Shown here: piece after piece, positions 7,980-60,333 of the stretch | Numbering within the stretch: the first letter of the stretch is position 1 | Layout: every line of letters begins with the position of its first letter | Origin: Minisyncoccota bacterium | GTDB lineage: Bacteria > Patescibacteriota > Minisyncoccia > Phycocordibacterales > SBAW01 | Assembly (NCBI GenBank): GCA_035546615.1 | Contig: DASZWM010000003.1 | Coordinates: forward strand, 64,001 to 128,000 | DNA: 64,000 nt | Direction of reading: 5' to 3' | The notes under the pieces: model-generated | Seen by the model: only the letters and a program-made list of their open reading frames with translations | Databases searched by the model: none | What the model was told of the DNA's origin: nothing | Position numbers and translations under genes: made by a program

Positions 7980-9215
7980 TTATTCGTACCGCAGCGCCTC
8001 GATTGGGTTAAGCGCTGCCGCGCGGCGCGCCGGGTAGTACCCGAACACGATGCCGATCAAGGCAGATACGCCGAACGCAAGAATGATGGATGTCGGCGAT
8101 ACCGCGGTCTTCACGATGCCGGTCAGATTGACGGCGAAGGATATGCCCCACCCCAGGGCGATGCCGATGACGCCGCCGATAAGCGTCAGCGCGATGGCCT
8201 CGATGAGAAACTGCTTGGTGATGTCGCTCTTTCTCGCGCCTATCGCCTTGCGCAGGCCTATCTCGCGCGTGCGCTCGGTTACCGTCGTGAGCATCATGTT
8301 CATGATGCCGATGCCGCCGACCAGCAAACTGATGCCGCCTATCGCGGCAAGAAGGTACGTCAGGGTGGCCGTGACGCTCGACGCCGACGCGAGGATGTCC
8401 GCCTGGTTAAGCACGCTGAAATCCGCAGCGGTCGCGTCGGAGATATGGTGCCGGTCCAGAAGCAGCGCGGTAATGTCGGCCGAGGCCTGCGTCATGACAT
8501 CGGCGCTTGCGGCCTGCACGTCGATGGATGTCAGGTACTGGTCGCCGGAGAAGTAGCGCTGCGCGCTTTTGACCGGGATGTAGACGATATCGTCGGCGTT
8601 GGTGAATCCGCTGCCGCCCTTGGCCGCGGTAACGCCGATAACCTTGAACTCCATGCCCTTGATGCGGATTATCTTTCCTATCGCGTCCGCCGCCGCCGTG
8701 TCCTCCCCGAACAAGTCGCTTACTACCGTCGGCCCCAGCACCGCCACTTTGGCGGCGGAATCGTTTTGCGTGTCGCTGATGAACGAGCCTTCAGCCACGG
8801 CAATGTTGCGGATAGCCGGATAGCTCGCCGTGGTGCCGTTGACGGTCGTATTGGTATTGGTGCCCTTGGCGGTTATCTGATAGCGGCCGGTTACTTCCTG
8901 CGCGACCGCCTCCACGCCCGAGACCTGCGCGAGTATTGCGTCGGCGTCGGCCGCGGTCAGCGACTTTGCTCCCCCGCGGCCGGCGGAAGCGGTAAAGCCA
9001 CCGGCCATGCGCTGTACCCCCGGCGTTATCTGCAAAAGATTGGAACCCAAGGCGCTGATGCTTGAAGAAATAGACGCCGAAGCGCCGCTGCCTATCGAGA
9101 CCATCGCGATGACGGACGAAATGCCGATAACGATGCCGAGTATAGTGAGCCCGGAGCGGACCTTGTTGGCCGAAAGGGCCGTATAGGTTTCGTGTAAGGT
9201 ATCTTTTAAAGTCAT
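7980..9215 (-). CDS. ABC transporter permease, MacB/FtsX family
   Basis: MacB periplasmic core domain plus C-terminal FtsX 4-TM domain. Start taken at MTLKDTLHETY (ATG 9213-9215). Confidence 0.8.
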   Translation of the reverse strand: MTLKDTLHETYTALSANKVRSGLTILGIVIGISSVIAMVSIGSGASASISSSISALGSNLLQITPGVQRMAGGFTASAGRGGAKSLTAADADAILAQVSGVEAVAQEVTGRYQITAKGTNTNTTVNGTTASYPAIRNIAVAEGSFISDTQNDSAAKVAVLGPTVVSDLFGEDTAAADAIGKIIRIKGMEFKVIGVTAAKGGSGFTNADDIVYIPVKSAQRYFSGDQYLTSIDVQAASADVMTQASADITALLLDRHHISDATAADFSVLNQADILASASSVTATLTYLLAAIGGISLLVGGIGIMNMMLTTVTERTREIGLRKAIGARKSDITKQFLIEAIALTLIGGVIGIALGWGISFAVNLTGIVKTAVSPTSIILAFGVSALIGIVFGYYPARRAAALNPIEALRYE

Positions 9216-9358
9216 GTGTGTATCACTGCGAAAGATGGAAGTGAAATAGGATAGTCGCACCTATACGGTCCCAAGCCCCCGTGGAGGAAGGTTTGGGAAA
9301 CCGAGAGGTTTCCCAGACGGGGGTCGGGGGCTTGGGCGGTATATGTTTCATGGAGGGT
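9216..9358. repeat. palindromic intergenic insert flanked by a duplicated macB 5' end
   Basis: 12-bp inverted repeat CCCAAGCCCCCG / CGGGGGCTTGGG enclosing an inner hairpin. Flanked by two copies of TCTTTTAAAGTCAT (9201-9215 and 9359-9373). The upstream copy re-encodes MTLKDTLHETYT with only synonymous differences. Confidence 0.45.
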
Positions 9359-9385
9359 GTCTTTTAAAGTCATACGAAGAAATTT

Positions 9386-10099
9386 TTAAGCGTCATGATG
9401 TTTGGCGCGGCGGCGCGCGTGGGCTTTGGAGTCGGACACAATAAGCCCGTCGCGCAGGACGATGATGCGCTGCGCATGCTCGGCAACGTCGGGCTCGTGG
9501 GTGATGAGGATTATCGTGCGCCCCTGCTCCTCGTTGAGCTTCTGGAACGTGCCGAGCACGACTTCGCCGGTCTTGGTGTCGAGGTTGCCGGTCGGCTCGT
9601 CGGCCAAAATGAGCGACGGCTCGTTGACAAGCGCGCGGGCGATGGCGACGCGCTGTATCTGCCCGCCGGACAATTCATTGGAGCGGTGAAGAAAATGCGT
9701 TTCGGAAAGCCCCGCGTCCACCAATGACTTCTTCGCGCGCTTTTCGCGCGCCTCCTCGTCTACGCCGGCGTACACGAGCGGCAGCATCACGTTGCGCAGC
9801 ATGGTCGTGCGCGGAAGCAGGTTGAACGACTGGAACACGAAGCCCACTTTGCCTTTGCGGATATCGGCCAATTGCTCGTCGTCGAGCTTGGATACGTCTT
9901 TTTTGTCCAGCCGGTACGAGCCCGAAGTCGGCGTGTCGAGGCAGCCGAGAATATGCATGAGCGTCGACTTGCCCGATCCGGAGGGGCCCATGATTGCGAC
10001 GAACTCGCCGTCCTCTATCGTGAAGGACACTCCCTTGAGCGCCTGGAATGCGGTATCGCCCGAGCCGTACGTCTTCGTTATGTCTTTTATTTCGATCAT
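9386..10099 (-). CDS. ABC transporter ATP-binding protein (MacB/LolD-type)
   Basis: Walker A GPSGSGKST, ABC signature [15 protein letters not shown] and Walker [12 protein letters not shown]. Confidence 0.85.
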   Translation of the reverse strand: MIEIKDITKTYGSGDTAFQALKGVSFTIEDGEFVAIMGPSGSGKSTLMHILGCLDTPTSGSYRLDKKDVSKLDDEQLADIRKGKVGFVFQSFNLLPRTTMLRNVMLPLVYAGVDEEAREKRAKKSLVDAGLSETHFLHRSNELSGGQIQRVAIARALVNEPSLILADEPTGNLDTKTGEVVLGTFQKLNEEQGRTIILITHEPDVAEHAQRIIVLRDGLIVSDSKAHARRRAKHHDA

Positions 10100-10104: not shown

Positions 10105-11736
10105 CTAGAAAGCTCTGAGCGTCGCGCCGCCGAAGCCGCCCCTGTTGGCGCCTGTGGCAGCCGTAGCGGCAGTTGCCGCGGTGGCCGAAATAGTGCGCGT
10201 TACCACCTGCTCCCCTTCCGACAGGCCGGACACTATCTCGACGTTCGTATCGTCGGAAAGGCCCGTCTCTACCGCTACCTGCCGCGGCGCCGTCTTTGAC
10301 GCGACGCCGGCAGCGCCTCCGGTCTCCGCAAGCGGCGGATCGAATACCTGCACGTAGGAGGCGCCGCCCACGGTCTTCACGGCGCTCGACGGCACGATGA
10401 GCACGTCGGATTTGACGCTTGTCTGGATACTGGCGTTCACCGTCATGCCGGCCTTGATGCGCGGATCCTGCGCGTCGAAAGCGATCTCAAGCGCGTAGCT
10501 GACAACGCCCTGGCTCACGGTGCCCGCCGCGTCTATCGACGCCACGGTGCCCGTGAGCGTGAGGCCGTCTATCGCGTCGAACGTAAGCGTCGCCTTGTTG
10601 CCCACTTGCACTTTCGCCGCGTCGACCTCGTTGAGGCTGAGCGTCGCGACCTGCGTCTTGCTGATGACGGTCGCGATGGCGGTGCCGCTGCCGACCGTGT
10701 CGCCGACGGAGACGTTCACTTTGGAGACGATGCCGTCAAACGGCGCGCGGACGTAGGTGTCCGCAAGGGCATCCTTTTTCTGCTGGAGCGACAGCATCTC
10801 CGAGCGCAGGTCGAGCGCGTCGGGGCCGCTCTCAAGGTCGGCGAGCGCCTGCCGGCTTTTTATCGCGGAGCTTCTGGAGGAAGACGTGTTGGAGACGGCA
10901 TTGTTGGCCGTGCTTGCCAGGGACGTGACCGACGAATACGCGGCGTCCGCGTCGGCCGCAGTCGCGATGCTGTTATGGGTGCGCAGATACACGACCGCAT
11001 CCTGGGCGGACTTGGCGCTCTGCGCCGCCGAAAGGGCCGCATCATACGCCTGCGACAGCGCGTTCTCTATATCGGACTGGCTCGACGCCGTCGAGACGGA
11101 GCGCAGCGTCGCATCGTACGCCTTGAGAAGGTCGTCCGACGCGTAATAGCTCTTTTCGGCGGTAGATACGTATCCGCGGCCGGTCGCGCTGACGCCCGAG
11201 TTATTGGAAAGGCTGAGATAGCCGCTGAAAAGATCGTGCAGCCCGTCGAGTACGGTGTGCATGTCGCTTGAAGCCTTGGAAAGGGATGCGCGGGCGTCCG
11301 CGTACGCGCTTACGACCGAATCTTTGGCGTCTTGCAGGTCTTCCGGGTCGACGGTAACGAGCCTGTCGTACGAAAGCTGCGCGGTCCCAAGGTCGTACAA
11401 GGCGTCGGTCGGATCGACCTGCGCCAAGAGCGCGCCCGCCTTAACTTCCTGCCCGGCTTTCACGTTGACCGCGATGAGCTTGCCGGAGGAGGCGCCGGAA
11501 ACATCGACTTCGCTTGATGCCGCGACCTGCCCGCTGCCGGAAACCGAGGCAACGATGGTGCCCATCTGCGCGCTACCCAGCACGTACCGCGTCTCGGCGC
11601 TCGCGGATGTGGCGCGGCTATACGCCCACCAGCCGCCGCCCACAAGAACGACGATGGCTGCGGCGCTTATAACCTTGTGCGCGAGCGCGTATTTGGAGGC
11701 GCGCGCGTAGAGATTCTTAAATGCGGCTGTATTCAT
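10105..11736 (-). CDS. efflux periplasmic adaptor subunit (HlyD/MacA family)
   Basis: N-terminal TM anchor, long Ala/Ser-rich coiled coil, then barrel-sandwich/beta-barrel domains. C-terminal ATAATAATAAT low-complexity repeat. Operon with the ABC ATPase and permease. Confidence 0.75.
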   Translation of the reverse strand: MNTAAFKNLYARASKYALAHKVISAAAIVVLVGGGWWAYSRATSASAETRYVLGSAQMGTIVASVSGSGQVAASSEVDVSGASSGKLIAVNVKAGQEVKAGALLAQVDPTDALYDLGTAQLSYDRLVTVDPEDLQDAKDSVVSAYADARASLSKASSDMHTVLDGLHDLFSGYLSLSNNSGVSATGRGYVSTAEKSYYASDDLLKAYDATLRSVSTASSQSDIENALSQAYDAALSAAQSAKSAQDAVVYLRTHNSIATAADADAAYSSVTSLASTANNAVSNTSSSRSSAIKSRQALADLESGPDALDLRSEMLSLQQKKDALADTYVRAPFDGIVSKVNVSVGDTVGSGTAIATVISKTQVATLSLNEVDAAKVQVGNKATLTFDAIDGLTLTGTVASIDAAGTVSQGVVSYALEIAFDAQDPRIKAGMTVNASIQTSVKSDVLIVPSSAVKTVGGASYVQVFDPPLAETGGAAGVASKTAPRQVAVETGLSDDTNVEIVSGLSEGEQVVTRTISATAATAATAATGANRGGFGGATLRAF

Positions 11737-27615: not shown

Positions 27616-27687
27616 CGCGGGGTGGAGCAGTAGTAGCTCGCAAGGCTCATAACCTTGAGGTCGCAGGTGCAAGTCCTGCCCCCGCAA
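27616..27687 (+). tRNA. initiator tRNA-fMet (anticodon CAU)
   Basis: Near-identical to E. coli tRNA-fMet at the ends: CGCGGGG...CCCCGCAA with the C1-A72 mismatch. Anticodon loop CUCAUAA. T-arm GCAGG-UGCAAGU-CCUGC. Confidence 0.85.
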
Positions 27688-27694
27688 CAAGCCA

Positions 27695-32937: not shown

Positions 32938-33528
32938 TTATTGCCAGTTGAAGATGTTCTCGGTCACTTTGACAGAGCGGCCGGTTCCGCCCGTATCGCT
33001 CCAGGATACCGTAACGACCAGTTTTTGCTCGTCATCGGAAAGATCGGTCAGGCTGACGGTGCGGGTATAGATGGTGGGCGTGACGGAGGGAGGATTCGCG
33101 GCCGAGTAGGTAAAGCGCCCCTGCGAGGCGTCGTAGTTCAGCGCCGGACAGGTCGAGCCGCAGGTCTGCGGAGTGGCCGGATAATTTCCCGTGGAATCCA
33201 CATAGCAGAGTGCGCTGCCGTTTGCGCTTTTGCATACTGAAAGGTCGGTTCCGGCGGCCGAGCCCCCCGCGCCCGTAAGCCAATCGGCTCCTTTCAGCTT
33301 GTTTGAGTCGCGCACGAAGCGTACGTACTCGACCGCGTCCTGCGCGAGGAAGAACGCGGTCACCTGGTCCTTGGCAACTAGCGCGGTTGTAAGGCTTTTG
33401 CTCGCTATGGTCATAGGGCCCGCTATGGCGGTCGAGAGAATGAGCACGGCCACGAGCATCTCAATGAGCGTGAAGCCCCCGCGGGCCTTCGCGACGAGCC
33501 GCCGCATGTTCTTGGGTTTACTGGTCAT
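32938..33528 (-). CDS. type IV minor pilin / pseudopilin (prepilin-type N-terminal cleavage/methylation domain)
   Basis: Leader ...ARGG|FTLIEMLVAVLIL. Confidence 0.7.
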   Translation of the reverse strand: MTSKPKNMRRLVAKARGGFTLIEMLVAVLILSTAIAGPMTIASKSLTTALVAKDQVTAFFLAQDAVEYVRFVRDSNKLKGADWLTGAGGSAAGTDLSVCKSANGSALCYVDSTGNYPATPQTCGSTCPALNYDASQGRFTYSAANPPSVTPTIYTRTVSLTDLSDDEQKLVVTVSWSDTGGTGRSVKVTENIFNWQ

Positions 33529-34126
33529 ACAGTCGCTGGGTTACTGAGGTCTGGATATTGAATACGGAGCACTGCGCGGGCGTCGCCAGGCAGTCGGCCA
33601 TGGAGGCGGGGTTGCCGCTTATCTTCACAAAGCCGCTCAGGGCTATCGTGATTCGGGCCTGTAGGGTATCCGCGGGAGACGAGCCGACCAGGTAGAATTT
33701 CAAAGAAGTTATGACGACTTCCGGAGCCGTAATCGACAGGTAGCCCGAACCGTCCCCAGTATCGCGCATGATGCAGCCGGCCGTCGCAAGAGCCGACTGG
33801 CCGCAGGGGGCGGCGGTTGTCTCGAACTTGTACTTCGTCCGCGCGCCCGGACTTGCAGCGTCGACGGGATGGAATCCTACCTCCTGCGCGCCGTCGGTGC
33901 AGTCGGTATTCGCTCCGCGGCCGCAATCGTACAGCGTGCCGGTGCGGATGGTGCGCGACATGCTCTCTATGGCGAAGTTGAGGTTGTTCATGACCGTCTT
34001 CAGCGTCTCGGCCTTCTTGTCGGCTGCTGATATCGACAGGAGCGCGCCCATGGAAACGACCATGACGATGGAGAATATCGTCACCGACACCATTATCTCT
34101 ATGAGCGTAAAACCTCCTTTGTTCAT
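33518..34126 (-). CDS. type IV minor pilin / pseudopilin
   Basis: Leader MNKGG|FTLIEIMVSV. Confidence 0.7.
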   Translation of the reverse strand: MNKGGFTLIEIMVSVTIFSIVMVVSMGALLSISAADKKAETLKTVMNNLNFAIESMSRTIRTGTLYDCGRGANTDCTDGAQEVGFHPVDAASPGARTKYKFETTAAPCGQSALATAGCIMRDTGDGSGYLSITAPEVVITSLKFYLVGSSPADTLQARITIALSGFVKISGNPASMADCLATPAQCSVFNIQTSVTQRLYDQ

Positions 34127-34127
34127 A

Positions 34128-34844
34128 TTAGCAGTCTGGGTACACCTTGTTGACCCCGCAAACGATAATTTGACCCGTCGTGGTGACGGTTATTCCGCGC
34201 GTTGTAACGCCGTCAGGCCCGACTATCTGAATATACGCGCTTTTATACGTGCCGCCGGCCGAGGTTGCAAAGAACGCGTCGGGATTGGGGCGCTTGAAAT
34301 AGATCGAAAGCCAGTCCAAAGTCGGCGTACATACTTGCGAGTTCGAGGACGTGGTGGCACAGAACTTCAATATGGAATAGCCCGGCCCGAGCTTGAACTG
34401 CTGCACGTCTTCGTTGCCCGCGTTGGAAGAGCAGAATCCGGTAACCGCCCATCCCGCGCGACAGTGGTCCTTCGTACCGCTGTCGGCGAAAATATAGTAG
34501 TTGCTCGTGCCCTCTCCTTTGTAGAAGAATACCCCGTAGTCGGACGTGAAGCCGCTCGTGGCCGAATCCTGCCGGACGCTCGTGCCGTAGACCTGCGCCT
34601 GGCGCACCGACAGCGCGATGCTGTAGGCCAGGCTGCGCAGCAGGGTCGAACTGTCGAACTTCCGCTGCTGGAGCAGCAGCACCGTGGTCATGATAGTTAT
34701 GATGGCGACCACCACCAGAAGCTCGATGAGCGTGAACCCTCTTCCCTTCCCCAGGAGGCGCCGGAAAGGCTTTTTAAAAAAGGAGCGGGAGTGAGGAGAG
34801 AAAATCGACATGGAAGAATAGTGCGACCAGCGCGCCCAGCACAA
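34128..34844 (-). CDS. type IV minor pilin / pseudopilin
   Basis: Leader ...GKGRG|FTLIELLVVVAII. The true start is probably internal (MSIFSPHS). Overlaps the pilD 3' end. Confidence 0.65.
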   Translation of the reverse strand: MCWARWSHYSSMSIFSPHSRSFFKKPFRRLLGKGRGFTLIELLVVVAIITIMTTVLLLQQRKFDSSTLLRSLAYSIALSVRQAQVYGTSVRQDSATSGFTSDYGVFFYKGEGTSNYYIFADSGTKDHCRAGWAVTGFCSSNAGNEDVQQFKLGPGYSILKFCATTSSNSQVCTPTLDWLSIYFKRPNPDAFFATSAGGTYKSAYIQIVGPDGVTTRGITVTTTGQIIVCGVNKVYPDC

Positions 34845-35574
34845 GGAAGGGCGCGAACGGGAGCTCGCTTCTCATTGTAAGCCCTTTTTTTAGGACGATG
34901 AGCAGTATGCCCACAGCGGCCCCTATCCAGAACGCGAGCATGAGGGCGCTGCCGCCCGCCGCGAGCCCCAGGAACCAGCCGAGACTGAGTTCAAGCGCCC
35001 CGTCGCCCCACCCCATCCACCGCCCGCGCGAGGCGAGCGAAATGAGCGTCAGCGGCAATGCCAGCAAGGGTCCCGCGAGCACCGCCCATATATCTGGACT
35101 TACGAAGTCCAGAATATGGCCCGGAGAACTGAAGGATATGAAGAGAGACGCGAAGGCGAGGATGGCGAGCAGTATGGAGCACGACCAGGGGATGACCGTA
35201 TGGCGAAGGTCGTACACCACGACGAACAGCAGTATCATCCAGACCAAAAGCCAGAATGCGTATGCGAGCGGCAGCGAGTACGAAAGGAATACCAAAAGAG
35301 AGAGGCCCGCGCCGGCCAGCTCGACCAGCGGATACTGCACGCTGATGCGCGCGCTGCAGTAGCGGCACCGGCCGCCGAGGAACACGTACGAGAATACCGG
35401 CACGAGGTCGCTTGCGGCGAGCGTATGGCCGCACTGCATGCATTTGGAGCGGCCGTTTGCTATCGAGCGGCCGGTCCCCCACCGGAAGGACAGCGCGTTT
35501 ATGAAGCTTCCGAATATGGCGCCCAATACCGCCGCGGCGACCGGAAAAAGAAGACTGCTTTGCAAGGCGTCCAT
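34774..35574 (-). CDS. pilD: prepilin peptidase (A24 family)
   Basis: N-terminal Cys cluster (CMQCGH..CRYC) and a polytopic membrane domain with conserved Asp residues. Confidence 0.85.
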   Translation of the reverse strand: MDALQSSLLFPVAAAVLGAIFGSFINALSFRWGTGRSIANGRSKCMQCGHTLAASDLVPVFSYVFLGGRCRYCSARISVQYPLVELAGAGLSLLVFLSYSLPLAYAFWLLVWMILLFVVVYDLRHTVIPWSCSILLAILAFASLFISFSSPGHILDFVSPDIWAVLAGPLLALPLTLISLASRGRWMGWGDGALELSLGWFLGLAAGGSALMLAFWIGAAVGILLIVLKKGLTMRSELPFAPFLVLGALVALFFHVDFLSSLPLLF

Positions 35575-36092
35575 CAGTTATTGGTCACGTCGTAGCACTG
35601 GTCGGGGGTGCCGCCGCCCTGCGTGCAGTCCTTCGTTGGGTAAAAGTCATTGTAGCCGAAACACGCGACCGCTCCGTTCGGCACCGTTCCTCCAAGATCG
35701 TCCGACGGCATAGTCGCGTTTTCCAGAGCCGCGCCGAGATGATATTTCGAAGCGCCGCCGGAACATGCCGTAGTCGCCCCGAACGGGGCATACATATAGC
35801 TCCCTCCTGTCAGCGGATCAGTAGGTATCTTGGAGATGTATCCGCCGTTCACGAGTGCGGTTGCCAGGTTATTGGCGTCAGCGACCTTAGGGTACGACAG
35901 GTTATCATTGTAATAGAGCCCGAGCGCGAGCTGGATATTTTTTATATCACTGATGCGCTTGGCGTCGCGGCCGCTCGCCTTGGCGCCGCTCAATCCCGCT
36001 ATCATGATGCTTGCCAATATGCCGATGATGGCGATTACCACCAGGAGCTCGATGAGCGTAAAGCCGCGCAATCTTGCGGCAATAGTATGCAT
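35574..36092 (-). CDS. type IV pilin (PilA-like)
   Basis: Leader ...RLRG|FTLIELLVVIAIIGILASI. 172 aa. Confidence 0.75.
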   Translation of the reverse strand: MHTIAARLRGFTLIELLVVIAIIGILASIMIAGLSGAKASGRDAKRISDIKNIQLALGLYYNDNLSYPKVADANNLATALVNGGYISKIPTDPLTGGSYMYAPFGATTACSGGASKYHLGAALENATMPSDDLGGTVPNGAVACFGYNDFYPTKDCTQGGGTPDQCYDVTNN

Positions 36093-36164
36093 ACAGCCAG
36101 TATACCCTCAAAAACAAAATCCCCAGCACATGCTGGGGATTTTGTTTTTCCTTTAAAGCGAAGA

Positions 36165-36629
<465 letters not shown>

Positions 36630-36748
36630 AATTATGATAACTATCCGAATTCCTAATAATTGTTAATGGAACGCTAAATTGCGGATGCCTTAAGTATAGC
36701 CTGTTCCTGGGCGGACAAATACGCCGTGTGGATAACACCCCTTCGGGG

Positions 36749-37963
36749 CTAGATGCTCCCGGCGGTGTTGTAGATAGGCAGGAGGACCGACGCAAGGAGG
36801 AAGCCGACGCCGAGCGCCAGCAATATGATAAGCGCGGGCTCGATGAGCGACACAAGCGTGTCCACAGCCGCATTGACCTCGCGGTTGTAGAATTTGGCGA
36901 GACGCTCGAGAATGCTCCCCATCTCCCCCGTTTCCTCGCCTATCTGGAGCATCTGGACCATGATGGCCGGTATCTCGTGCGGATAGCGAGCGAGAGCCTG
37001 CGACATCGGGCTGCCGGCCTTCACCGCCTCAAGCGCCTCCTGCAGTATCCCCTCGTACACGCTGTTGCCCACGACCGATGCGGTTATTTCAAGCGCGCGC
37101 ACGGCGGAAATGCCGGATGAAAGCATGACGTGCATGTTGTCGGCCATGCGGGCAAGGAAGAGCTTCTGGTAGAGGGCGCCGATGTACGGGACCGAGAGCT
37201 GGAGATGGTCGAGCGCAAGCTTGCCCTGCGGGGTGCGCGTAAATTTGACGAGGAAGAAGCCCCCGATGATAAGCGCGATGAGAAGGAAAATGCCGTAATC
37301 GACCAGGAACGAGCTGAACCCGAGCACGAGCGACGTGATGAACGGCAGCTCCTGCCCCGAGTCGGCGATGATTGCGCCTATCTTGGGGATGACCACCGTA
37401 AGCATAAGGGTCATGACCGCTACGAACGTAAGCATGATGAAGCCCGGATAGACCAGGGCGTTGCGGGCCTTGCTGGTGAGCTCGTAGGAGCGGTCGATAT
37501 AGTCGGCCAAAAAGAGGAACGTCTCGTCGAGCTTGCCGGACTCCTCGCCCGCGCGGACCATGTTGACGTAGAAGTCGGAAAATACCTTCGGGTGCTTCGC
37601 CAGCGATTTTGAAATGGAGCTGCCCGCCTGCAGGTCGTCGCTTATTGTGACGAGCACCGTCCGCAGGAAGGGTTTTTCCGCCTGTTCGGCCAGAAGCTTG
37701 AAGACGCGCAAAGCCGAAACCTGCGCCTCGAAGAGCGTCGCTATCTGGCGCGACAGGAGCACGAGGTCGCGGTTGCTGACGCCGCCGAAGAGCGTAATGC
37801 CGCCAATAGAGGCAAGCATCCCCTTGGCGCCGCCGGCATCGAAGGACGTGATAGTGAGGCCGCGCCGCTGAAGCGCCGTGATGGCGGCGTCCTGGCTGGC
37901 GGCGTTTACCACGCCGGAGGTCGGCTTGCCGTTTTGGTCGAGTGCTTCGTATTTGAATTCCAT
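36749..37963 (-). CDS. pilC: type IV pilus inner-membrane platform protein PilC (GspF family)
   Basis: Two T2SSF repeats, 404 aa, 3 TM. Confidence 0.85.
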   Translation of the reverse strand: MEFKYEALDQNGKPTSGVVNAASQDAAITALQRRGLTITSFDAGGAKGMLASIGGITLFGGVSNRDLVLLSRQIATLFEAQVSALRVFKLLAEQAEKPFLRTVLVTISDDLQAGSSISKSLAKHPKVFSDFYVNMVRAGEESGKLDETFLFLADYIDRSYELTSKARNALVYPGFIMLTFVAVMTLMLTVVIPKIGAIIADSGQELPFITSLVLGFSSFLVDYGIFLLIALIIGGFFLVKFTRTPQGKLALDHLQLSVPYIGALYQKLFLARMADNMHVMLSSGISAVRALEITASVVGNSVYEGILQEALEAVKAGSPMSQALARYPHEIPAIMVQMLQIGEETGEMGSILERLAKFYNREVNAAVDTLVSLIEPALIILLALGVGFLLASVLLPIYNTAGSI

Positions 37964-37972
37964 ATATGCAGT

Positions 37973-39037
37973 TTACAGCAATCGCTCCAGGTTCTTGGGG
38001 TTCCCCGAGCGGCTGTACGCGCTCTCGGCCGTTATCTCCCCCATGCGCACCAGCTCGGCCAAGCTGCGATTCATGTCTATCATGCCGTCCTCGCCGCCGG
38101 TCTCGATGACCGTCTGTATCTCGTGCGTGCGCTTCTCGCGGATGAGATTGGCGACCGCGCTGTTGGCGACAAGCAATTCATAGGCCGGGATGAGCCCGCC
38201 GGAGATGCGGGGCACCAGCCGCTGGGAAAATATGCCCGCAAGCGAGCCGGCCAGCTGGATGCGTATCTGCTCCTGCTGGCCCGCCGGGAACGTGTCGATG
38301 ATGCGGTCGATGGTCTGCGACGCGTTGTTGGTGTGCAGGGTCGAGAACACGAGATGGCCGGTTTCGGCGGCGGTCACGGCTGTGGCCATGGTCTCGGGCG
38401 TGCGCATCTCCCCTATCATGAGCACGTTCACGTCCTGTCGAAAAACCGAAGCGAGCGCCGTCTGGAAGTCGGCGGTATCGACGCGCACCTCCCGCTGGTC
38501 GATGAGCGACTTCTTGTTCTCGAAAATATACTCGATAGGGTCCTCTATCGTGATGATGTGCTCGGTGCGCTCGTTGTTTATCTTTTCTATCAAAGCCGCG
38601 AGCGTCGTGGTCTTCCCTTGCCCCACCGGCCCCACCACCAGGAAGAATCCCTGCTCGCGCGCGGTAAAGGACTCAAGCGACGGCGGCAGATTGAGCTCGG
38701 CGATGGTGCGGATCATTCGCGGGATAAGCCTGAGTGCCACGCTTACCTGGCCGCGCTCCACGTACGCGTTGCCGCGGAAGCGCGCCTTCTCGCCGTAGGA
38801 ATATGAAAAGTCGGCTTCCTGCGTCTCCGTGAACGCCTTCATGCGCTCCGGCGATATCATCTCGGCCAAGTAGCCGCGCATGTCCTCGGGAGTGAGTATC
38901 GGTTCGGAAAGAAGCGGCGCCAAGGCGCCGGATACGCGCATGACCGGCTGGATGCCCGCGCCCATGTGGAGGTCGCTTGCTCCTTGGGCTATGAGCTTGT
39001 CTATAAGAGCCGCTAATTTTTCCTTGTACTGGGGCAT
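37973..39037 (-). CDS. pilT: type IV pilus retraction ATPase PilT
   Basis: 354 aa. Walker A GPVGQGKTT. PilT-type hexameric ATPase with no N-terminal GSPII domain. Confidence 0.9.
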   Translation of the reverse strand: MPQYKEKLAALIDKLIAQGASDLHMGAGIQPVMRVSGALAPLLSEPILTPEDMRGYLAEMISPERMKAFTETQEADFSYSYGEKARFRGNAYVERGQVSVALRLIPRMIRTIAELNLPPSLESFTAREQGFFLVVGPVGQGKTTTLAALIEKINNERTEHIITIEDPIEYIFENKKSLIDQREVRVDTADFQTALASVFRQDVNVLMIGEMRTPETMATAVTAAETGHLVFSTLHTNNASQTIDRIIDTFPAGQQEQIRIQLAGSLAGIFSQRLVPRISGGLIPAYELLVANSAVANLIREKRTHEIQTVIETGGEDGMIDMNRSLAELVRMGEITAESAYSRSGNPKNLERLL

Positions 39038-39040
39038 GAG

Positions 39041-40912
39041 TTAGACTTTTATTTCCTTTTCGGGCGCGGCCGGCGCATCTGGAGCGTCATCGCCGTCCCC
39101 ATCCTCGGAAAGGGCTATCGGGGCCGGCGTTGGCTCGGCCTCGGGAGTATCGTCGAGCTCGAACTCGCCGCCGAGCGTGTTCACTTCCTCAAACGGCACC
39201 GTGCCCTGCGCTGACTTGATGATAGCATCCTCCTTCATGGTGAGCATGCCGTTCTTGCGCGCTATCGAGAACAGCTCGTCCTCCGGCTTGCCGGCGAGTA
39301 TCGCGTGCTCGAAGTCGGAGTTCATGCCCCACATCTCGAACGCCGCGATGCGGCCGCGCGTGCCCGACGGGCAGTCGGGAGTGACGTCCACGCGGTACAT
39401 CTCGTCAAGCGGCGGTATCTCCTTGCGGTATTCCTCCGGCAGGTCCGCGAACTGCTTGTCGAGCATCTCCTTGGTGCTGGAGTCGACTTCCACTTTTTTG
39501 CCGCCGCCCGGGCACAGGGTCTTCACCAGGCGCTGCGCCATGCCGAGGATGAGCACGGGCGGAATGAGGTACGGTTCCACGCCCATGTCCAGGAGGCGCG
39601 GGATGATACCGACGGAGTTGTTGGTGTGGATGGTCGAAAGCACGAGGTGGCCGGTCAGCGCCGCCTGCACCGCAAGGTTGGCGGTCTCGGCGTCGCGGAT
39701 CTCGCCCACCATGATGATGTTCGGGTCCTGGCGGAGCGTCGTGCGCAAGCCGTTGGCGAACGTGTAGCCTATTTCCGGCCGCACCTGCGACTGGGAGACG
39801 CCGGGTATCGTGTATTCGACCGGGTCCTCGAGGCTGAGCACGGTCTGCTTGTCGCGGTCCACCTCGTTAAGGAGCGCGTAGAGGGTCGTTGATTTGCCCG
39901 AGCCGGTCGGTCCCGAGATGAGTATCATGCCGTACGGCTTCTTTATCGCGGTGCGTATCATCTCGAGATTGCGCTTGGAGAGCCCGAAGTCCTCGAGCTT
40001 GAGGACTTTCGCGGAGGCCCCGAGAATTCTCATCACCACCTTCTCGCCGTAGTAGGTCGGGAACGTCGAGACGCGGAAGTCCACCTTGTTGCCGGCCACG
40101 CGCGCGGAGAAGCGGCCGTCCTGCGGCTTGCGCTTCTCGTCGAGCTTCATGTTTGAAAGCACCTTGATGCGCGCCACGACGGCCGAATGCACCTTGGGCG
40201 GCAGGGTGATGTTGGTTACAAGCACGCCGTCGATGCGGAAGCGCACGCGCGTCTGGTCGGCGAGCGGCTCTATGTGGATGTCGGACGCGCGCTGCTCGGC
40301 GGCGTGGCGCAGGACGGTCGCCACAATTTTGGTGACGGGCGCGTCCTCGGTTATCGCCTCCGCGCCGGTGTCGGTAATGATGTCCTCCTCGAGGCTGATG
40401 GAGCGCTTCTTGCCGTCCTTCCCCTCCTTCTGCGCTTCTATAGTGCTTTCGGTGTCGAGCTCGCCGAGCGCCTTGCCCACCTCGCCGGAGAGTCCTTTGT
40501 ACTGCTGGAGCAGGTGCTCGAAATCGGTGTCGGTAATGAGGAATATCTTGTACGGCATGCCTACCTTTGCGGAAATGAAAGTGAGCGCGTCGCGCGCTTC
40601 CAGGTTGTCCGGGTCGACGATGCCGACCTCAAGCGCGCCGTCGACTATCCCCAGCGGCGCAAAGCGGTAGTGGCGCGCGCTTTCCTCCGGCACGAACCGG
40701 AGCACCTCGAAGGGCACGTTCTTGTCGCCCACCTCGCGCGTCGGGAGGCCGTAATAGTCCCCCTTGGCCTTGAGCACCATAGGGAGCGTAATGCCGGCGG
40801 CCTGCAGCACGCCCTCGACGGTCGTGCCCGGCTTTGCGAGCTCGGCGCGAAGCTCGGCCGCCTTCGCGCGGTCAAGCGTCCCTGAATCGATTAAGAGTTG
40901 AAAGAGGTCCAT
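39041..40912 (-). CDS. pilB: type IV pilus assembly ATPase PilB (GspE family)
   Basis: 623 aa. N-terminal GSPII domains, Walker A GPTGSGKST and a tetra-Cys motif region. Confidence 0.9.
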   Translation of the reverse strand: MDLFQLLIDSGTLDRAKAAELRAELAKPGTTVEGVLQAAGITLPMVLKAKGDYYGLPTREVGDKNVPFEVLRFVPEESARHYRFAPLGIVDGALEVGIVDPDNLEARDALTFISAKVGMPYKIFLITDTDFEHLLQQYKGLSGEVGKALGELDTESTIEAQKEGKDGKKRSISLEEDIITDTGAEAITEDAPVTKIVATVLRHAAEQRASDIHIEPLADQTRVRFRIDGVLVTNITLPPKVHSAVVARIKVLSNMKLDEKRKPQDGRFSARVAGNKVDFRVSTFPTYYGEKVVMRILGASAKVLKLEDFGLSKRNLEMIRTAIKKPYGMILISGPTGSGKSTTLYALLNEVDRDKQTVLSLEDPVEYTIPGVSQSQVRPEIGYTFANGLRTTLRQDPNIIMVGEIRDAETANLAVQAALTGHLVLSTIHTNNSVGIIPRLLDMGVEPYLIPPVLILGMAQRLVKTLCPGGGKKVEVDSSTKEMLDKQFADLPEEYRKEIPPLDEMYRVDVTPDCPSGTRGRIAAFEMWGMNSDFEHAILAGKPEDELFSIARKNGMLTMKEDAIIKSAQGTVPFEEVNTLGGEFELDDTPEAEPTPAPIALSEDGDGDDAPDAPAAPEKEIKV

Positions 40913-40924
40913 AGCAGGCCATAC

Positions 40925-41215
40925 CTATAAGGGCGCGAACGGATTGCGCCGCCCCGCGTTCTCGGGCGGGATCTGCACGCCGTAGTCGGTAAGCGAGGTG
41001 AAAATGGGGTCGCTGAAGATGCTCGAGTCCAGGCGGATGACGGTAAGGTTCGAGAGCGTCGTAAGCACGTCAGCCGACAAGGGCGAGGCCTGCGGGATCT
41101 CCAGCAGGGTGTTGTTCGCCGGGCCGCCGGAGAAGTACGTCATATACAGCCACCAGGCGAGCACCGCCGCGACGACGAGGCCGATATACAGTTTGTTGTC
41201 TTTAAGGAATTGCAT
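40925..41215 (-). CDS. small membrane-anchored pilus assembly protein (PilP-like, tentative)
   Basis: 96 aa, single TM. Position between pilO and pilB. Confidence 0.35.
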   Translation of the reverse strand: MQFLKDNKLYIGLVVAAVLAWWLYMTYFSGGPANNTLLEIPQASPLSADVLTTLSNLTVIRLDSSIFSDPIFTSLTDYGVQIPPENAGRRNPFAPL

Positions 41216-41222
41216 GGTGGTG

Positions 41223-41774
41223 TTAATGGAGCCAGTAGGTCCGGATAGAAAGCGTGTAGTCGCTGAGGCCGGTTTCCGTCGCGGCGAACTTTATCTCCTC
41301 CACGTCCACGACGCGCAGACTGTGCTCGAGGTCCTGCAGGAACGCGAGGAAGTCGTCGTACGACGCCGAGAGCGTGAATCCGAGCGACACCGACCCTATC
41401 GCGTCTCCCGACGCCCCGACCGCGGCGGCGCTGCGCGCGGAGGCCGCGTCGGAAACGCTCCCGAGCTGCACATTCTTGAGGCTGAGCCCGTGGCGCGCGG
41501 CGATGTTGTTTATGTCGATGATGAGGTGGATATTGTCCACGTTGTCCGGGAGTATCTCCTCGAGCCGGTCCTTGTTCTCGACCGAGAAGGTGTTGAACGC
41601 CGCGGTCTTCTGGTCGCGTATCTTGCGCAGCTCCTGCGACTTGTCGAGCGCTTCGTCGTACGTCTTCACTTCCGCCTGGAGGCTCTTGGTGCTTTGATAG
41701 GTCGGATTGGTATACATAACGAAGAGGCCGATTGCGGCCAGGACGAGGAGGATGGGCAGTGCGAGTCTGGTCAT
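41223..41774 (-). CDS. pilO: type IV pilus assembly protein PilO-like
   Basis: N-terminal TM, coiled coil and a ferredoxin-like periplasmic domain. Position after pilN. Confidence 0.6.
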   Translation of the reverse strand: MTRLALPILLVLAAIGLFVMYTNPTYQSTKSLQAEVKTYDEALDKSQELRKIRDQKTAAFNTFSVENKDRLEEILPDNVDNIHLIIDINNIAARHGLSLKNVQLGSVSDAASARSAAAVGASGDAIGSVSLGFTLSASYDDFLAFLQDLEHSLRVVDVEEIKFAATETGLSDYTLSIRTYWLH

Positions 41775-41778
41775 GATG

Positions 41779-42462
41779 TTATTGGGCGGCTTTTGGCGCT
41801 CCTGACGAAGGGGGCGTTGTGGAGGCGGCCGGAGCCGCGGGCGTCTGGGGCGCGGCGGTTTCCGCCGGGGGCAGCGACTGCGGCGCGGCGAGGTTCTTGG
41901 CGTATGAGATGAGCGCGGAATCCACCGTAGCCGTTACATGGAACGATACGGCGCCGCTATCTTTTATCGCGATGTCCGAGAAGAGGAGGTCCTTGAGCAC
42001 CTTGCTCGCGCCGAACTGGTCGGATTGGAGCGCCACGCCGGAGAAGCTGTCGGCCACGCCGGAGAGAGTGATGTCAGCCGACCCGTCGTCCTTCAGCTCG
42101 TAGGAGAATTCCGTCAGCTGGACGCTTTCAAGCGTCTGCTGCGCGAGGAAGTAGAAGATCGCCGAAGGGGCGATGTGCTTGTTGAGGACCGCGCGGGCCT
42201 GGGTCAGGCGGGTATCGAACCGCACGAGCAATTGGATGCTGGGCAGGTCAAACGCCTCCTGGTACTTAACCAACGAGTCCTTTTTGTCCTGGAGCGACTT
42301 GTCGAGCAGGCGCGTATACGCGAAGGCGCCGCCCGCGGCCGCGATGGATGCGACGAAGAAGAGCACGGCTATAAGGAGAATGAGGCCGGAGAAGCCGCGC
42401 ACGCCGCGCGCCTCGACAAGCGGCTTCTTGGGTATGAACGATGCCTGGAGCGAAGGATCCAT
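41779..42462 (-). CDS. pilN: type IV pilus assembly protein PilN-like
   Basis: Short cytoplasmic N-terminus, single TM, periplasmic domain and a Pro/Ala-rich tail. Follows pilM. Confidence 0.6.
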   Translation of the reverse strand: MDPSLQASFIPKKPLVEARGVRGFSGLILLIAVLFFVASIAAAGGAFAYTRLLDKSLQDKKDSLVKYQEAFDLPSIQLLVRFDTRLTQARAVLNKHIAPSAIFYFLAQQTLESVQLTEFSYELKDDGSADITLSGVADSFSGVALQSDQFGASKVLKDLLFSDIAIKDSGAVSFHVTATVDSALISYAKNLAAPQSLPPAETAAPQTPAAPAASTTPPSSGAPKAAQ

Positions 42463-42560
42463 CTTGGGCTTAATTATATAGTATGAAAAAACATCGCATG
42501 AGAGCTATCAACAAGCGAGTTCGCGCAGTTGATAGCAAATTAAATAGTCAACATGGTCTT

Positions 42561-43708: not shown

Positions 43709-44320
43709 ATGCTTCGCGCGATTTCCTCATTGTTTGCCTCTTTGGTCGGCCTGCTTATCCCGCCGCGGCGCAACGAGCGGGTCGTTGCGGCGATGACGCT
43801 CGATGATCTGGAGCAATTGCGCGCCGAGGACGGGCTTCCTTATCGCGACGAGCGCGTCAGGGCGTTTATATGGGAGCTTAAATACAACAAAAACCCCCAC
43901 GCGCTCAGGCTTGCGGGCGAATTCCTGGCCGAAGACCTGCTCGGCATCGCCGAAGAAGAGCTGGGCCGGCCGCTGTTGGTGCCTATTCCCATGCATGCAA
44001 CAAGGAGGCGCGAGCGCGGGCACAATCAGACCGAAGCTTTATGCGAAGCGGCGCTCGCATTCGTGAACGATTCATTCGAGTACATGCCGAACGCGCTTGC
44101 GCGCATAGCACATACGCCGCCTCAGCAGGGACTTCCCCGCCGCAAGCGGCTTGAAAACCTTATCGGCTCGATGCAGGCAAATGCAGATGCGGTTCGGGGC
44201 CGCGTATGCGTCGTCATGGACGACGTTTCTACGACGGGCGCCACGTTTGCGGAAGCCAAACGCGCCCTGCGCGAAGCCGGCGCCAAGCGCGTGCACCCGG
44301 TCGCGCTTGCTCGCTCCTAA
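43709..44320 (+). CDS. comF: ComF family protein (competence, phosphoribosyltransferase domain)
   Basis: C-terminal PRTase motif VCVVMDDVSTTGATF. 203 aa. Confidence 0.75.
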   Translation: MLRAISSLFASLVGLLIPPRRNERVVAAMTLDDLEQLRAEDGLPYRDERVRAFIWELKYNKNPHALRLAGEFLAEDLLGIAEEELGRPLLVPIPMHATRRRERGHNQTEALCEAALAFVNDSFEYMPNALARIAHTPPQQGLPRRKRLENLIGSMQANADAVRGRVCVVMDDVSTTGATFAEAKRALREAGAKRVHPVALARS

Positions 44321-59947: not shown

Positions 59948-60321
59948 GGGAGTGACAGGCTTAGACAATATAAATAATAGTTCGCACGCAAGGGAGAAGC
60001 GGGGACCTTCTTTAAAAAGCCCCAAACCATAACTGCAAAATCAGTTACATCGCCGTATTTCACGGTGAATGACCTCGCTTTCGCTACCGCAAGGAGCTAA
60101 GCGAGCATTGGCTCTGCAACGCTCGTGAGCGGAGTACCAATGTTATAACACCGAGATCGATCGGCTAGCCTGCTTGCCTAGCCCTTCTAAACTAAAGCTG
60201 CGATCCGGTCTTATTTCGTCTGCTTCTTACAACCGGGTCTAAGAAACAAAAGCAGCCTATCTCTTGTAGACCTGCGCTCTATCTTATGTTGCACGGCGGT
60301 TCAACTCCGCCCACTTCCACC
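59948..60321 (+). ncRNA. ssrA: tmRNA (SsrA), standard one-piece
   Basis: Immediately downstream of smpB. 5' GGGAGUG pairs with 3' CACUUCC, including the G3-U70 Ala identity pair. T-arm GGCGG-UUCAACU-CCGCC with a T-loop identical to E. coli tmRNA. Discriminator A then CC. PK1-like GCGGGGACC..AAAAAGCCCC. Candidate tag frame GCA(60035)..UAA(60098-60100). Confidence 0.7.
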
Positions 60322-60333
60322 GGTAAAAACATT

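Follow-up and report, generated by a model that had tools for sequence, protein, structure and literature searches.

The junction between the ATPase and permease genes of an ABC efflux operon from a Minisyncoccota bacterium raises the question of how the start of a gene comes to be written twice, in different synonymous codons, with a palindrome lying between the two copies. Bacteria of the Candidate Phyla Radiation have tiny, gene-dense genomes, and to our knowledge few mobile repeats have been described for them. The locus lies on contig DASZWM010000003.1 of assembly GCA_035546615.1, in a stretch of 64,000 nucleotides that was analysed as a whole and is called the window here. The original prediction, made from the letters of this stretch, proposed either a MITE-like palindromic insert with an unusually long target duplication or a partial gene duplication preserved at the protein level. 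All of the features that it described were found in place. Their interpretation required the comparison with related genomes and with other copies of the palindrome that is reported below.

The permease start and the adjoining hairpin

The three genes around the junction score above the curated Pfam cut-offs, which confirms a MacB/FtsX-type ABC efflux operon, and the order of the HlyD, ATPase and permease genes is unchanged in relatives. The permease is 100% identical to P0001, from a metagenome-assembled genome labelled Candidatus Paceibacterota; an exact look-up of the ATPase protein returned no record. The genes and the parts of the junction are as follows.

10105..11736, minus strand: HlyD-type membrane fusion protein (Pfam HlyD_3, HlyD_D23), first gene of the three-gene efflux operon
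9386..10099, minus strand: ABC transporter ATPase, 237 aa, upstream of the junction (Pfam ABC_tran, E = 8.9e-34)
within 9377..9397, minus strand: third, partial copy of the permease start, ATGACGCTTAAAAA, 14 nt (repeat of 71% identity; holds the ATPase stop)
9334..9373, minus strand: upstream (displaced) copy of the first 40 nt of the permease (direct repeat, 85% identity; abuts the CAAGCCCCCGACCCC end of the core)
9212..9373, minus strand: 53-codon ORF, from the displaced start through the hairpin and spacer to a TGA (ORF list and sequence)
9272..9334, minus strand: 63-nt core hairpin of the repeat family (10-bp outer stem, large internal loop, 9-bp inner stem, TCTC loop)
9259..9271, minus strand: segment S, inverted copy of codons 10-13 of the functional start (inverted repeat, 92% complementary)
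9216..9258, minus strand: remaining spacer, fast-evolving (TTCC..CTCCGC motif)
9176..9215, minus strand: downstream copy of the 40-nt repeat, the functional permease start (homologue starts, annotation)
7980..9215, minus strand: MacB/FtsX-type ABC permease, 411 aa (Pfam MacB_PCD 2.8e-47, FtsX 5.8e-22)

The permease starts at the ATG at 9215: its homologues all begin MT/NLKDT..., and the public annotation gives 411 aa. The mechanical ORF list gives it a 426-aa GTG start, one of the wrong start calls that such repeats generate along with spurious small ORFs.

The two 40-nt copies are 34/40 identical and lie 158 nt apart, start to start, with 118 nt and no gene between them. The exact 14-mer TCTTTTAAAGTCAT occurs twice, once in each copy, and when the two flanks are aligned locally the score is 48, whereas 100 shuffles give at most 27. 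The outer stem of the palindrome, CCCAAGCCCCCG/CGGGGGCTTGGG (9270-9281 and 9325-9336), is 100% complementary over 12 bp, two flanking pairs having extended the core stem to this length in the window, and it encloses the inner 9-bp hairpin. Segment S extends the palindrome and is able to pair with 9176-9188.

The two starts encode the same peptide by other codons, as had been predicted, although the identity covers 13 residues (MTLKDTLHETYTA) rather than 12. The codon differences that had been listed (GAC/GAT, CTC/TTA, CAT/CAC and ACA/ACC) were confirmed, and a fifth, ACC/ACG, had been missed. Six base differences are spread over these 5 codons; the probability that 6 random substitutions would all keep the peptide is ~7e-5. 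Other parts of the description had to be revised. The upstream copy was thought to run on out of frame for about 50 codons, whereas it keeps its own frame for 53 codons and ends in a TGA that overlaps the permease ATG (ATGA). The insert had been placed between the two genes, but its real site is 39-40 nt inside the permease ORF.

The junction was compared in relatives. In four of them (the P0002 contig, L005/L006, L007 and L008) it is uninterrupted, with 4-11 nt of overlap between the ATPase stop and the start of the permease; the insertion is therefore derived. The third partial copy of the start agrees with the L008 junction, CATGACGCTTAAC, and is read as a remnant of the ancestral overlapped junction; 23 nt present in the window at this site are absent from L003. 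One other lineage, represented by two independent JGI metagenome assemblies (L003 and L004), carries the same insert, at the identical site and with the same 158-nt spacing but in diverged sequence. Each insert-bearing lineage has an insert-free sister in the permease tree (the window with P0002, L003 with L007). The core of the window agrees with that of L003 at 61/63 positions, compared with 34/55 (~62%, counted by eye on the alignment) for the post-core spacer including S (9216-9271). A recombinant tract around the insert in L003 was considered and dropped, since the excess of sites at which the window equals L003 (first 90 nt) consists largely of L007-specific changes when polarised with L005. 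The spacer was also compared by eye with the 3' end of the ATPase gene, as expected of a longer duplication, and no similarity was seen.

These comparisons also bear on a spurious start duplication produced by metagenome assembly. The window does come from a metagenome-assembled genome, and repeats of this family break or mis-join assemblies, as discussed below. Assembly duplication is nevertheless excluded by the diverged sequences of L003 and L004, which keep the 158-nt layout, and the start copies differ at 6/40 positions, so no identical repeat has been collapsed or expanded; we regard the chance of an artefact as negligible.

Other copies of the hairpin and their flanks

The palindrome is identified by its sequence as a copy of a dispersed 63-nt hairpin repeat that is scattered through the genomes of Paceibacteria (Candidate Phyla Radiation). 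A search for other copies gave 12 distinct cores, 95-100% identical, at 12 unrelated loci in other assemblies from several metagenomes; no second copy was found within the 64-kb window. The window core is identical over its full length (63/63) to those of L014, L017 and L019 and 95-98% identical to the others, and the identity to L014 and L019 holds despite a GC content of 50-54% in their contigs versus 59% in the window. A 21-mer from the inner hairpin was found in 9 metagenome contigs with unrelated flanks, 6/9 of them within ~500 nt of a contig end. A six-frame peptide search with the core retrieved further copies from ENA and NCBI contigs and yielded no more than five called ORFs; this search is a source of new loci and is unsuited to counting copies.

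The core ends in perfect 10-bp inverted repeats, CAAGCCCCCG...CGGGGGCTTG, matches no protein family, and is free of stop codons in all six frames (2.5% of shuffles are as open). Copies point either way with respect to adjacent genes, and some lie next to tRNAs or in the space between two converging genes. Elements also differ in extent, from the core only in the window, L003 and L014 to the core plus arms elsewhere, and the right end is not conserved between copies. Some longer forms are mosaic, with additional hairpin modules. The copy at L027 has decayed and contains an additional ~120 nt. A right arm that has since diverged is the probable source of the spacer at 9216..9258, whose likeness to the long right arm of L016/L019 was judged by eye. 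At L017 the left flank of L019 and the right flank of L014 meet precisely at the core, and this contig may be an assembly chimera at a repeat. The repeats therefore break, and possibly mis-join, metagenome assemblies.

No Rfam family overlaps the element in the window region at E values up to 10, and Rfam scans of nine loci carrying copies returned tRNAs only. Two patterns of the element found no match in viral contigs. Transposase, integrase and reverse transcriptase (RT) domains were absent from the ~50 large ORFs of the window and from the called genes of the fetched copy loci, a small search space, and mobility is accordingly deduced from distribution only. A scan of species-representative genomes with the 12-nt outer stems, in a collection that apparently lacks the window's own genome, gave only two nested palindromes (in Acidobacteriota and Phycisphaerales MAGs) with unrelated interiors, which by a rough estimate is the chance expectation among GC-rich hairpins. 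No genes common to the window and the other element-bearing contigs were found from which host divergence could be gauged. Our literature search found no description of such repeats for Patescibacteria or Parcubacteria, and the hairpin repeat has no family name.

Elsewhere, too, imperfect direct repeats of 17-46 nt lie on both sides of the core, and these are gene termini. The repeats beat 100 shuffles at 7 loci and lie 141-321 nt apart, start to start; the right-hand copy stands 46-95 nt from the hairpin, while the left one reaches the core in the short forms only. At L014 the C-terminus of homospermidine synthase (SDPWQFKNILFN*) is accompanied by a remnant, SDPWQFKNIRFS*, and at L027 the identical site in the same gene pairs ...IRFT* with the remnant GEPWQFKNVRFT*, so that the stops are kept in frame. 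The C-terminus ...HTVHKESKK is present twice at L013, each copy with a separate stop, as read from the sequence. The 3' ends of tRNA-Tyr and tRNA-Met are duplicated at L015 and L024, respectively, the remnants at L015 being stacked. The displaced copy touches one and the same core end (CAAGCCCCCGACCCC) in the window, L003, L014, L027 and a variant of L015. An inverted copy of the target (10-23 nt) is found next to the element in the window, L003, L023 and L024, and, by eye, in L027. At three protein-coding loci the repeats measure 39-40 nt, and at two loci the same site has been hit in non-sister lineages. The long target duplication, 40 nt here and 17-46 nt elsewhere, is thus a recurrent trait of the family, although its length is not fixed. 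The label MITE-like holds in that the insert is a copy of a dispersed palindromic repeat, but the element is not a MITE in the strict sense: the right repeat lies 46-57 nt off the hairpin, the second end is not conserved, and the genes searched include no partner transposase.

Origin of the insertion

The polarity of the differences between repeat copies can be read from relatives. The displaced upstream copies in the window and L003 retain the ancestral ACA at codon 10, as in the uninterrupted relatives, whereas the functional copies of both share the derived synonymous codons TTA3, GAT5 and ACC10. In the window, 5/6 differences are derived in the functional, downstream copy, and the supposed preservation at the protein level is mostly explained by selection on that copy. 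Pooled over four loci, 24/35 differences between repeat copies fall at third codon positions (p = 2e-5). The functional copy is the more derived one in L014 as well: the L014 remnant agrees with the functional end of L027 at 35/39 positions, although the two genes are only 73% identical, and it matches the C-termini of the closest homologues (remnant IRFS*, homologues IRFS/IRFT), whereas the functional end of L014 itself (ILFN*) differs from the remnant at 11/39. Such more-derived functional copies are easier to reconcile with a gene end brought in from elsewhere than with plain duplication of the target where it stood. A diversity-generating retroelement with a TR/VR pair was rejected, as the differences between the start copies (C/T, C/A, T/C, A/C and C/G) are not adenine-specific and no RT was found in the window.

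The history that we favour, though with appreciable reserve, is that a dispersed, conserved, MITE/REP-like hairpin of 63 nt inserted into the start of the permease with ~40 nt of target on both sides. In the ancestral operon the ATPase stop overlapped the permease start. The hairpin and a fast-evolving arm of ~55 nt entered 39-40 nt inside the permease ORF, and ~40 nt of the target came to stand on either side of the element. Because this stretch is present on both sides, the first 13 codons remain intact on the gene body, and the permease survives because its first 40 bases are present again just downstream of the hairpin. The displaced start has stayed beside the ATPase stop, where it heads the 53-codon ORF that ends over the real ATG. 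Throughout the family, copies sit at gene starts, gene ends and tRNA 3' ends between direct repeats of 17-46 nt; this placement may reflect survival, as insertions into gene-dense genomes would persist only if the repeat spans a terminus. The presence of the insert in some lineages and not in their sisters may be owing to loss by recombination between the repeats or to lateral spread by homologous recombination, either of which would mix repeat copies between lineages and could yield differences that look synonymous. Candidate movers would be an enzyme making widely staggered target cuts, as for IS1549/IS1634, or template switching and fold-back synthesis at the hairpin.

The displaced start and the 53-codon ORF may relay translational coupling from the ATPase to the permease. 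As this ORF runs from the ATPase stop to the permease ATG, ribosomes could be handed on by termination and reinitiation. The ORF has the same length and ATGA ending in L003 and no Pfam match; since the core is open in every frame in any case, only ~19 spacer codons need to lack stops for it to be open (estimated p ~0.3-0.5), so its openness is not beyond chance. A missing Shine-Dalgarno (SD) sequence at the real start was considered as a sign of dependence on coupling, but it is uninformative because the genome is largely SD-less (13/55 starts have a loose 4-mer). At the RNA level, S can form 10/10 pairs with 9176-9188 in the window as well as in L003, and one of the pairs has changed in a compensatory manner (C-G/G-C). 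The stem foot shows a compensated C-G to T-A change. An intrinsic terminator was rejected, the scan reporting none at the core, where the hairpin is followed by GGACCG... and no T run; a promoter scan of the region found no promoter-like site. A group II intron-like EBS/IBS pairing of S was likewise rejected, as the insert is far too small and S fits the downstream copy better than the 5' flank.

Several other explanations have to be weighed against this insertion. The insert might be a locus-specific mini-cassette, composed of the hairpin, the spacer and a ~40-nt replacement gene end from the same gene of another lineage, that entered at the homologous site through a site-specific recombinase or short-homology recombination, in the way that integrative elements use tRNA 3' ends; this would make the functional copy foreign and the displaced copy the native terminus. 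The codons just described would agree, with native-looking displaced copies (ACA10) and foreign-looking functional ones in the window and L003, as would the closer match of the L014 remnant to its homologues and L027 than to its own functional end, the in-frame stops retained by displaced copies and the excess of third-position differences; but since the repeats are ~39 nt long, such native and foreign calls depend on few sites. The stacked tRNA 3' ends at L015 are the classic att signature of an integrase, and at two loci lineages that are not sisters were hit at the same site. The genes searched include no recombinase, however, and DNA of 148-158 bp is too short to circularise as an ordinary double-stranded intermediate. 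A single hairpin serving the permease, homospermidine synthase and three tRNAs would moreover need a target-matched arm in every copy, which is most simply made from the target itself. We consider the cassette possible but rather unlikely. A somewhat lower probability still is given to an origin without any transposon, in which replication template switching or fold-back synthesis at a stalled hairpin copied the hairpin stretch from elsewhere and re-entered behind the departure point, duplicating ~40 nt; the conserved core would then act as portable homology between diverged genomes. It would account for the variable extent of the element and the absence of a conserved right end, the range of repeat lengths (17 to 46 nt), the 10-23-nt inverted target copies that extend the palindrome at five loci, the compensated change at the stem foot and the join at L017, although L017 may be a mere chimera. 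Genes for a type IV pilus are also present in the window (PilM, PilN, two T2SSE ATPases, T2SSF, a prepilin peptidase and pilins), and their products could serve as machinery for DNA uptake. Against such an origin, the constant core end at the displaced copy and the 39-40-nt repeats at three protein-coding loci point to a defined reaction and not to random switching.

Much less probable is a cis-regulatory RNA, a leader peptide or attenuator, that evolved in place to tune the translation of the permease relative to the ATPase. In its favour, the 221-nt region folds strongly as RNA (z = -5.05 against shuffles), helices P1 and P2 can form in both lineages, the window and L003, with two compensatory pairs (for P2 the support comes from two sequences, and 120/500 shuffles score as high), both lineages have kept the upstream ORF with its terminal ATGA, and the core has changed far less than the spacer between the two lineages. 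Nevertheless, copies of the core sit at unrelated loci and point either way, some of them next to tRNAs or where two genes converge. The core is absent from most relatives at this junction, and it has no Rfam match; the decayed copy at L027, with its extra ~120 nt, shows that not every copy is constrained. Beyond the favoured insertion of a dispersed hairpin, we offer a more speculative extension with a low probability of being correct as a whole. The hairpin, kept almost base-perfect across Paceibacteria lineages, would spread without a transposase of its own, by fold-back or template-switch synthesis or by a host or other recombinase acting at one defined hairpin end; insertions at gene termini would be healed by duplicating or importing ~40 nt of gene end; identical cores, as portable homology, would let diverged genomes swap adjacent gene ends; and at this operon the insertion would have been co-opted as a relay ORF that keeps the translation of ATPase and permease coupled. 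If the cores are such recombination anchors between diverged lineages, they would bear on gene exchange in these organisms.

Comparison with known elements

The family resembles MITEs, the Correia elements of Neisseria and REP/BIME sequences in being short, non-coding and, over the 12 loci found, dispersed in intergenic positions, with perfect inverted termini and similar copies that break assemblies. Unlike MITEs, it has no short, fixed target duplication at both termini, having imperfect repeats of 17-46 nt instead. No partner transposase or RAYT, as known for MITE and REP sequences, was found among the window ORFs and the called genes of the fetched loci, and no Y1-transposase domain in the window. 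REP/BIME units are imperfect palindromes of 20-40 nt with a GT[AG]G head, whereas the core is 63 nt long and nested and has no GTAG head. A further difference from MITE and REP sequences is that near-identity is kept between genomes differing by 6-9% in GC.

Rickettsia palindromic elements (RPEs) are likewise tolerated within ORFs, and the core is stop-free in six frames; RPEs are translated in frame within the host protein, whereas here a duplicated terminus rescues the host protein and the element itself belongs only to an upstream ORF of its own. The junction also recalls termination-reinitiation coupling in operons, with an ancestral overlap of 4-11 nt and a new ORF that ends in ATGA in both insert lineages, although the predicted route differs from ordinary coupling in passing through an intermediate 53-codon ORF made by the insertion. 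Landing at gene ends with a long target on both sides would explain how selfish DNA persists where there is almost no intergenic space; the pseudo-termini left behind could mislead annotation and recombination analyses.

The closest parallels in the use of gene ends are the integrative elements of tyrosine recombinases, in which the direct repeats are also tRNA 3' ends, C-terminal codons with the stop, or N-terminal codons, the gene is left intact, its native end is displaced to the far side, and tRNA remnants are stacked as at L015. Those elements carry an integrase and span kilobases, whereas here ~100-270 nt separate the repeats, no integrase was found and one hairpin serves many targets. 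For IS1549 and IS1634, direct repeats of 8-514 bp have been reported, with no mechanistic model offered (PMC2266710). As in these, the target duplications described here amount to tens of bases and vary in length with each copy, and the family would be a further case of unexplained, very long target duplications. It is distinguished from the IS1634 family, whose members are 1.5-2 kb long and encode a DDE transposase, by a unit of ~120-270 nt that carries no gene and has no sequence in common with them.

The interrupted junction of an efflux operon

Three minus-strand genes of the window, each with a Pfam match above cut-off, form one efflux operon, and the insert separates its ATPase and permease genes. 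Both repeats were obtained by repeat search.

10105-11736, minus strand: HlyD-type adaptor
9386-10099, minus strand: ABC ATPase
7980-9215, minus strand: MacB/FtsX-type permease
9176-9215 and 9334-9373: direct repeat of 40 nt, 34/40 identical, spacing 158
9270-9281 and 9325-9336: perfect inverted repeat of 12 bp, enclosing a 9-bp inner hairpin

A 411-aa protein of a MAG labelled Candidatus Paceibacterota is 100% identical to the permease, whose real start is therefore the ATG at 9215, 170 nt from the ATPase stop. A mechanical ORF list begins it at GTG 9260 (7980-9260, 426 aa), inside the element. Spurious N-terminal extensions occur in called relatives (e.g. the homologues P0011, P0061 and P0094), and gene callers could place the permease start wrongly at this locus.

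The palindrome, the flanking repeat and the synonymous duplicate of the permease start, as originally described, were all recovered. The upstream, displaced copy encodes MTLKDTLHETYTA, and the residues identical to the permease start number 13 rather than 12. All six base differences from the working copy are synonymous, an outcome expected for about 7 in 100,000 sets of six random substitutions. The displaced copy had been thought to run on out of frame for about 50 codons; it instead stays open across the hairpin for 53 codons, and its TGA overlaps the permease ATG (ATGA). The flank alignment scores above 100/100 shuffles, and folding of the insert region gives z = -5.05.

The closest permease homologues were located on their contigs to compare ATPase/permease junctions. 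In the P0002 contig and at L005/L006, L007 and L008, loci from other assemblies, the junction is uninterrupted: no spacer intervenes, and the stop of the ATPase gene and the start of the permease gene overlap by 4-11 nt. L003 and L004, two independent JGI assemblies of one lineage (permease 86% identical in protein to that of the window), carry this insert too: its codon position, 158-nt spacing and ATGA ending all agree with the window, but the sequence has diverged. This shared layout excludes the assembly duplication that had been entertained. The window insert is an insertion, not an artefact. In the permease tree, the insert-bearing window and L003 are not sisters; the window pairs with insert-free P0002 and L003 with insert-free L007 (96-98% protein and 85-89% DNA identity), so the insert has been precisely lost at least twice or has been transferred between lineages.

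Around 9377-9397 the window has 23 nt that are absent from L003, and this interval includes a further copy, the third, of the permease start (14 nt, ATGACGCTTAAAAA), which contains the ATPase stop. The bases preceding ATGA in the upstream window copy (TTCTTCGT) are similar to those preceding the functional copy of L003 (TACTCGT). The likeness to L003 hints at a second, older event at this site, or at gene conversion.

A dispersed hairpin repeat and its gene-terminus duplications

A 21-mer of the inner hairpin matches nine metagenome contigs with unrelated flanks; six of the nine matches are no more than about 500 nt from a contig end, which fits a repeat that breaks assemblies. Searching with a six-frame translation of the core added copies in ENA and NCBI contigs. 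Core sequences (63 nt; window 9272-9334, minus strand) are 95-100% identical over 12 distinct loci in other assemblies, and the core occurs once in the 64-kb window. The window core is identical (63/63) to those of L014 and L019, contigs of 50-54% GC against 59% for the window. One L014 gene has its nearest named relatives in Candidatus Kaiserbacteria, and the family therefore spans several Paceibacteria lineages. The core matched no Rfam family and was not found in the viral contigs searched, and our literature search found no description of this repeat. About 50 large ORFs of the window show no transposase, integrase or reverse transcriptase domain. Most copies have a longer form, with a left arm bearing a second hairpin, whose stem changes are compensated, and a right arm (TTCTAAAC...TTCCCCGACCCC); in the window, L003 and L014 only a diverged right arm accompanies the core. 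Nested palindromes inside larger ones, at L001 2984-3052 (Acidobacteriota MAG) and L002 2719-2791 (Phycisphaerales MAG), have exactly the 12-nt outer stem of the window, CCCAAGCCCCCG/CGGGGGCTTGGG, around unrelated interiors; this is probably chance, and less probably they are distant relatives.

Imperfect direct repeats flanking the element score above shuffles at seven loci, and long gene-terminus duplication is a trait of the family. Other duplicated termini are:

L014: homospermidine synthase, last 13 codons plus stop; functional SDPWQFKNILFN (stop), displaced SDPWQFKNIRFS (stop)
L027: homospermidine synthase, same codon position as L014; functional ...IRFT (stop), displaced GEPWQFKNVRFT (stop); core decayed and expanded
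L013: C-terminus ...HTVHKESKK; both copies end in a stop codon of their own
L015: tRNA-Tyr 3' end
L024: tRNA-Met 3' end
L016: terminator-like hairpin, the two copies having different but well-formed stems

Repeat length is 39-40 nt at the three protein-coding loci. The CAAGCCCCCGACCCC side of the core is invariably the one with the displaced copy, which directly adjoins the core in short forms; the functional copy and gene body lie on the opposite side, 46-95 nt away. An inverted target copy of 10-23 nt accompanies the element in the window and L003 (segment S, 9259-9271), L023, L024 and, judged by eye, L027. In the right flank of L024 (+29 to +101 from the core, whose forward strand is L024 minus), a 22/23-nt inverted repeat relates the tRNA-Met 3' end and trailer to a copy 27 nt off, between tRNA and element; L023 (tRNA-Lys) has a comparable 10/11-nt inverted repeat. 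At L027 2190-2440, only 42/63 core positions are recognisable, 40/42 of them identical, and the interior holds about 120 extra nt, including another hairpin.

Several side observations concern single loci. L015 has a variant in reverse orientation at 237-330, in which only the outer stem and 5' loop (CAAGCCCCCG ... CGGGGGTCGGGGGCTTG) agree with the core; its 51-nt interior is unrelated, and it directly adjoins 17 nt left over from the 3' end of tRNA-Tyr. With a second tRNA-like T-arm remnant at 381-399, elements appear stacked beside a single tRNA gene. Besides its full copy, L013 has an isolated 23-nt piece (1464-1486) about 400 nt away, close to tRNA-Trp (1554-1625), that matches core positions 35-57 at 100% identity. 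L017 1-400, from a different JGI sample, joins the L019 left flank to the L014 right flank exactly at the core, which is due either to genuine recombination at the repeat or to chimeric assembly.

Origin of the duplication and of its synonymous differences

We favour a duplication made from the target at the birth of the insertion, which would come from widely staggered cuts; the insert would later be lost or spread laterally through homologous recombination. The only precedent found in the literature for so long a target duplication is IS1549/IS1634, whose direct repeats measure 8-514 bp and for which no mechanism is proposed (PMC2266710). A less favoured option is a mini-cassette that carries a replacement gene end and enters at a homologous site, much as integrative elements insert at tRNA genes. 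The L027 homospermidine synthase is the closest relative of that of L014 (84% protein, 73% DNA identity), and the displaced end of L014 matches the working end of L027 at 35/39 positions, the first 27 nt being identical, in genes 73% identical overall. Both C-terminal variants occur among natural homologues, and of the two copies in the window and in L014 it is the working one that has diverged further. From these observations, gene ends of different lineages appear to have been brought together, whether imported along with the element or joined afterwards by homologous recombination on one side of the insert. Template switching with fold-back synthesis at the hairpin would account for the inverted target copies, variable extents and filler sequence; we likewise rank it below a target-derived duplication.

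Over four loci, 24/35 differences between displaced and functional copies fall at third codon positions (p = 2e-5). Against the suggestion that the peptide was preserved at protein level, the displaced copy of L003 has two amino-acid changes. One, A13V, alters a residue invariant in 16 homologues and is compensated across the hairpin foot (C-G to T-A); the L003 displaced copy is thus not under protein-level selection. Polarised with uninterrupted relatives, 5/6 window differences are derived in the functional copy and one (CAC to CAT) in the displaced copy. Since derived changes lie mostly in the working copy, where only synonymous ones are allowed, much of the pattern is ordinary purifying selection on that copy; a residue remains beyond it.

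Present translation, surroundings and relation to known elements

At the ancestral junction the overlapping stop and start signals would couple permease translation to ATPase termination. The original, now displaced start overlaps the ATPase stop in L003 and lies 12 nt downstream of it in the window; in both it heads the 53-codon ORF (window 9212-9373, minus strand) ending in ATGA on the real permease start. This ORF may relay ribosomes from the ATPase end to the permease start. None of the six frames of the core holds a stop codon, as is also true of 2.5% of shuffles, and by estimate the stop-free spacer is no more than chance could give. Only 13/55 large window ORFs have a loose Shine-Dalgarno 4-mer upstream, so that initiation in this genome looks mostly SD-independent; reinitiation and unstructured starts are therefore plausible, which is in itself no test of the relay. 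The cores of the window and L003 agree at 61/63 positions; their spacers, counted on the alignment, are about 62% identical, similar to third positions of the flanking genes (0.60-0.68). The core is therefore constrained or repeatedly homogenised, and constraint at every copy is disfavoured because the L027 core has decayed. In both the window and L003, codons 10-13 of the working copy can pair with segment S, one compensatory change included.

Elsewhere the window contains:

32938-43670: type IV pilus cluster (PilM, PilN, two T2SSE ATPases, T2SSF, prepilin peptidase, several N-methyl pilins)
44317-45909: PIF1-like helicase
59948-60322: tmRNA gene (Rfam, 93.9 bits)

Judged from its genes, the pilus could serve DNA uptake. 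No copy of the element lies near the tmRNA or the seven tRNA genes of the window (Gln, Thr, Asp, two Met, Ser, Ile), of which tRNA-Met 27616-27688 is similar to the element-bearing tRNA-Met of L024.

The original main reading, that a palindromic element is mobile and has duplicated an unusually long stretch of its target, was largely right. The element falls outside the strict definition of a MITE, as it does those of REP, IS and integrative elements. It is best filed among small palindromic repeats, and is distinguished by gene-terminus duplications of about 40 nt, a fixed polarity and a core near-perfectly conserved across lineages.
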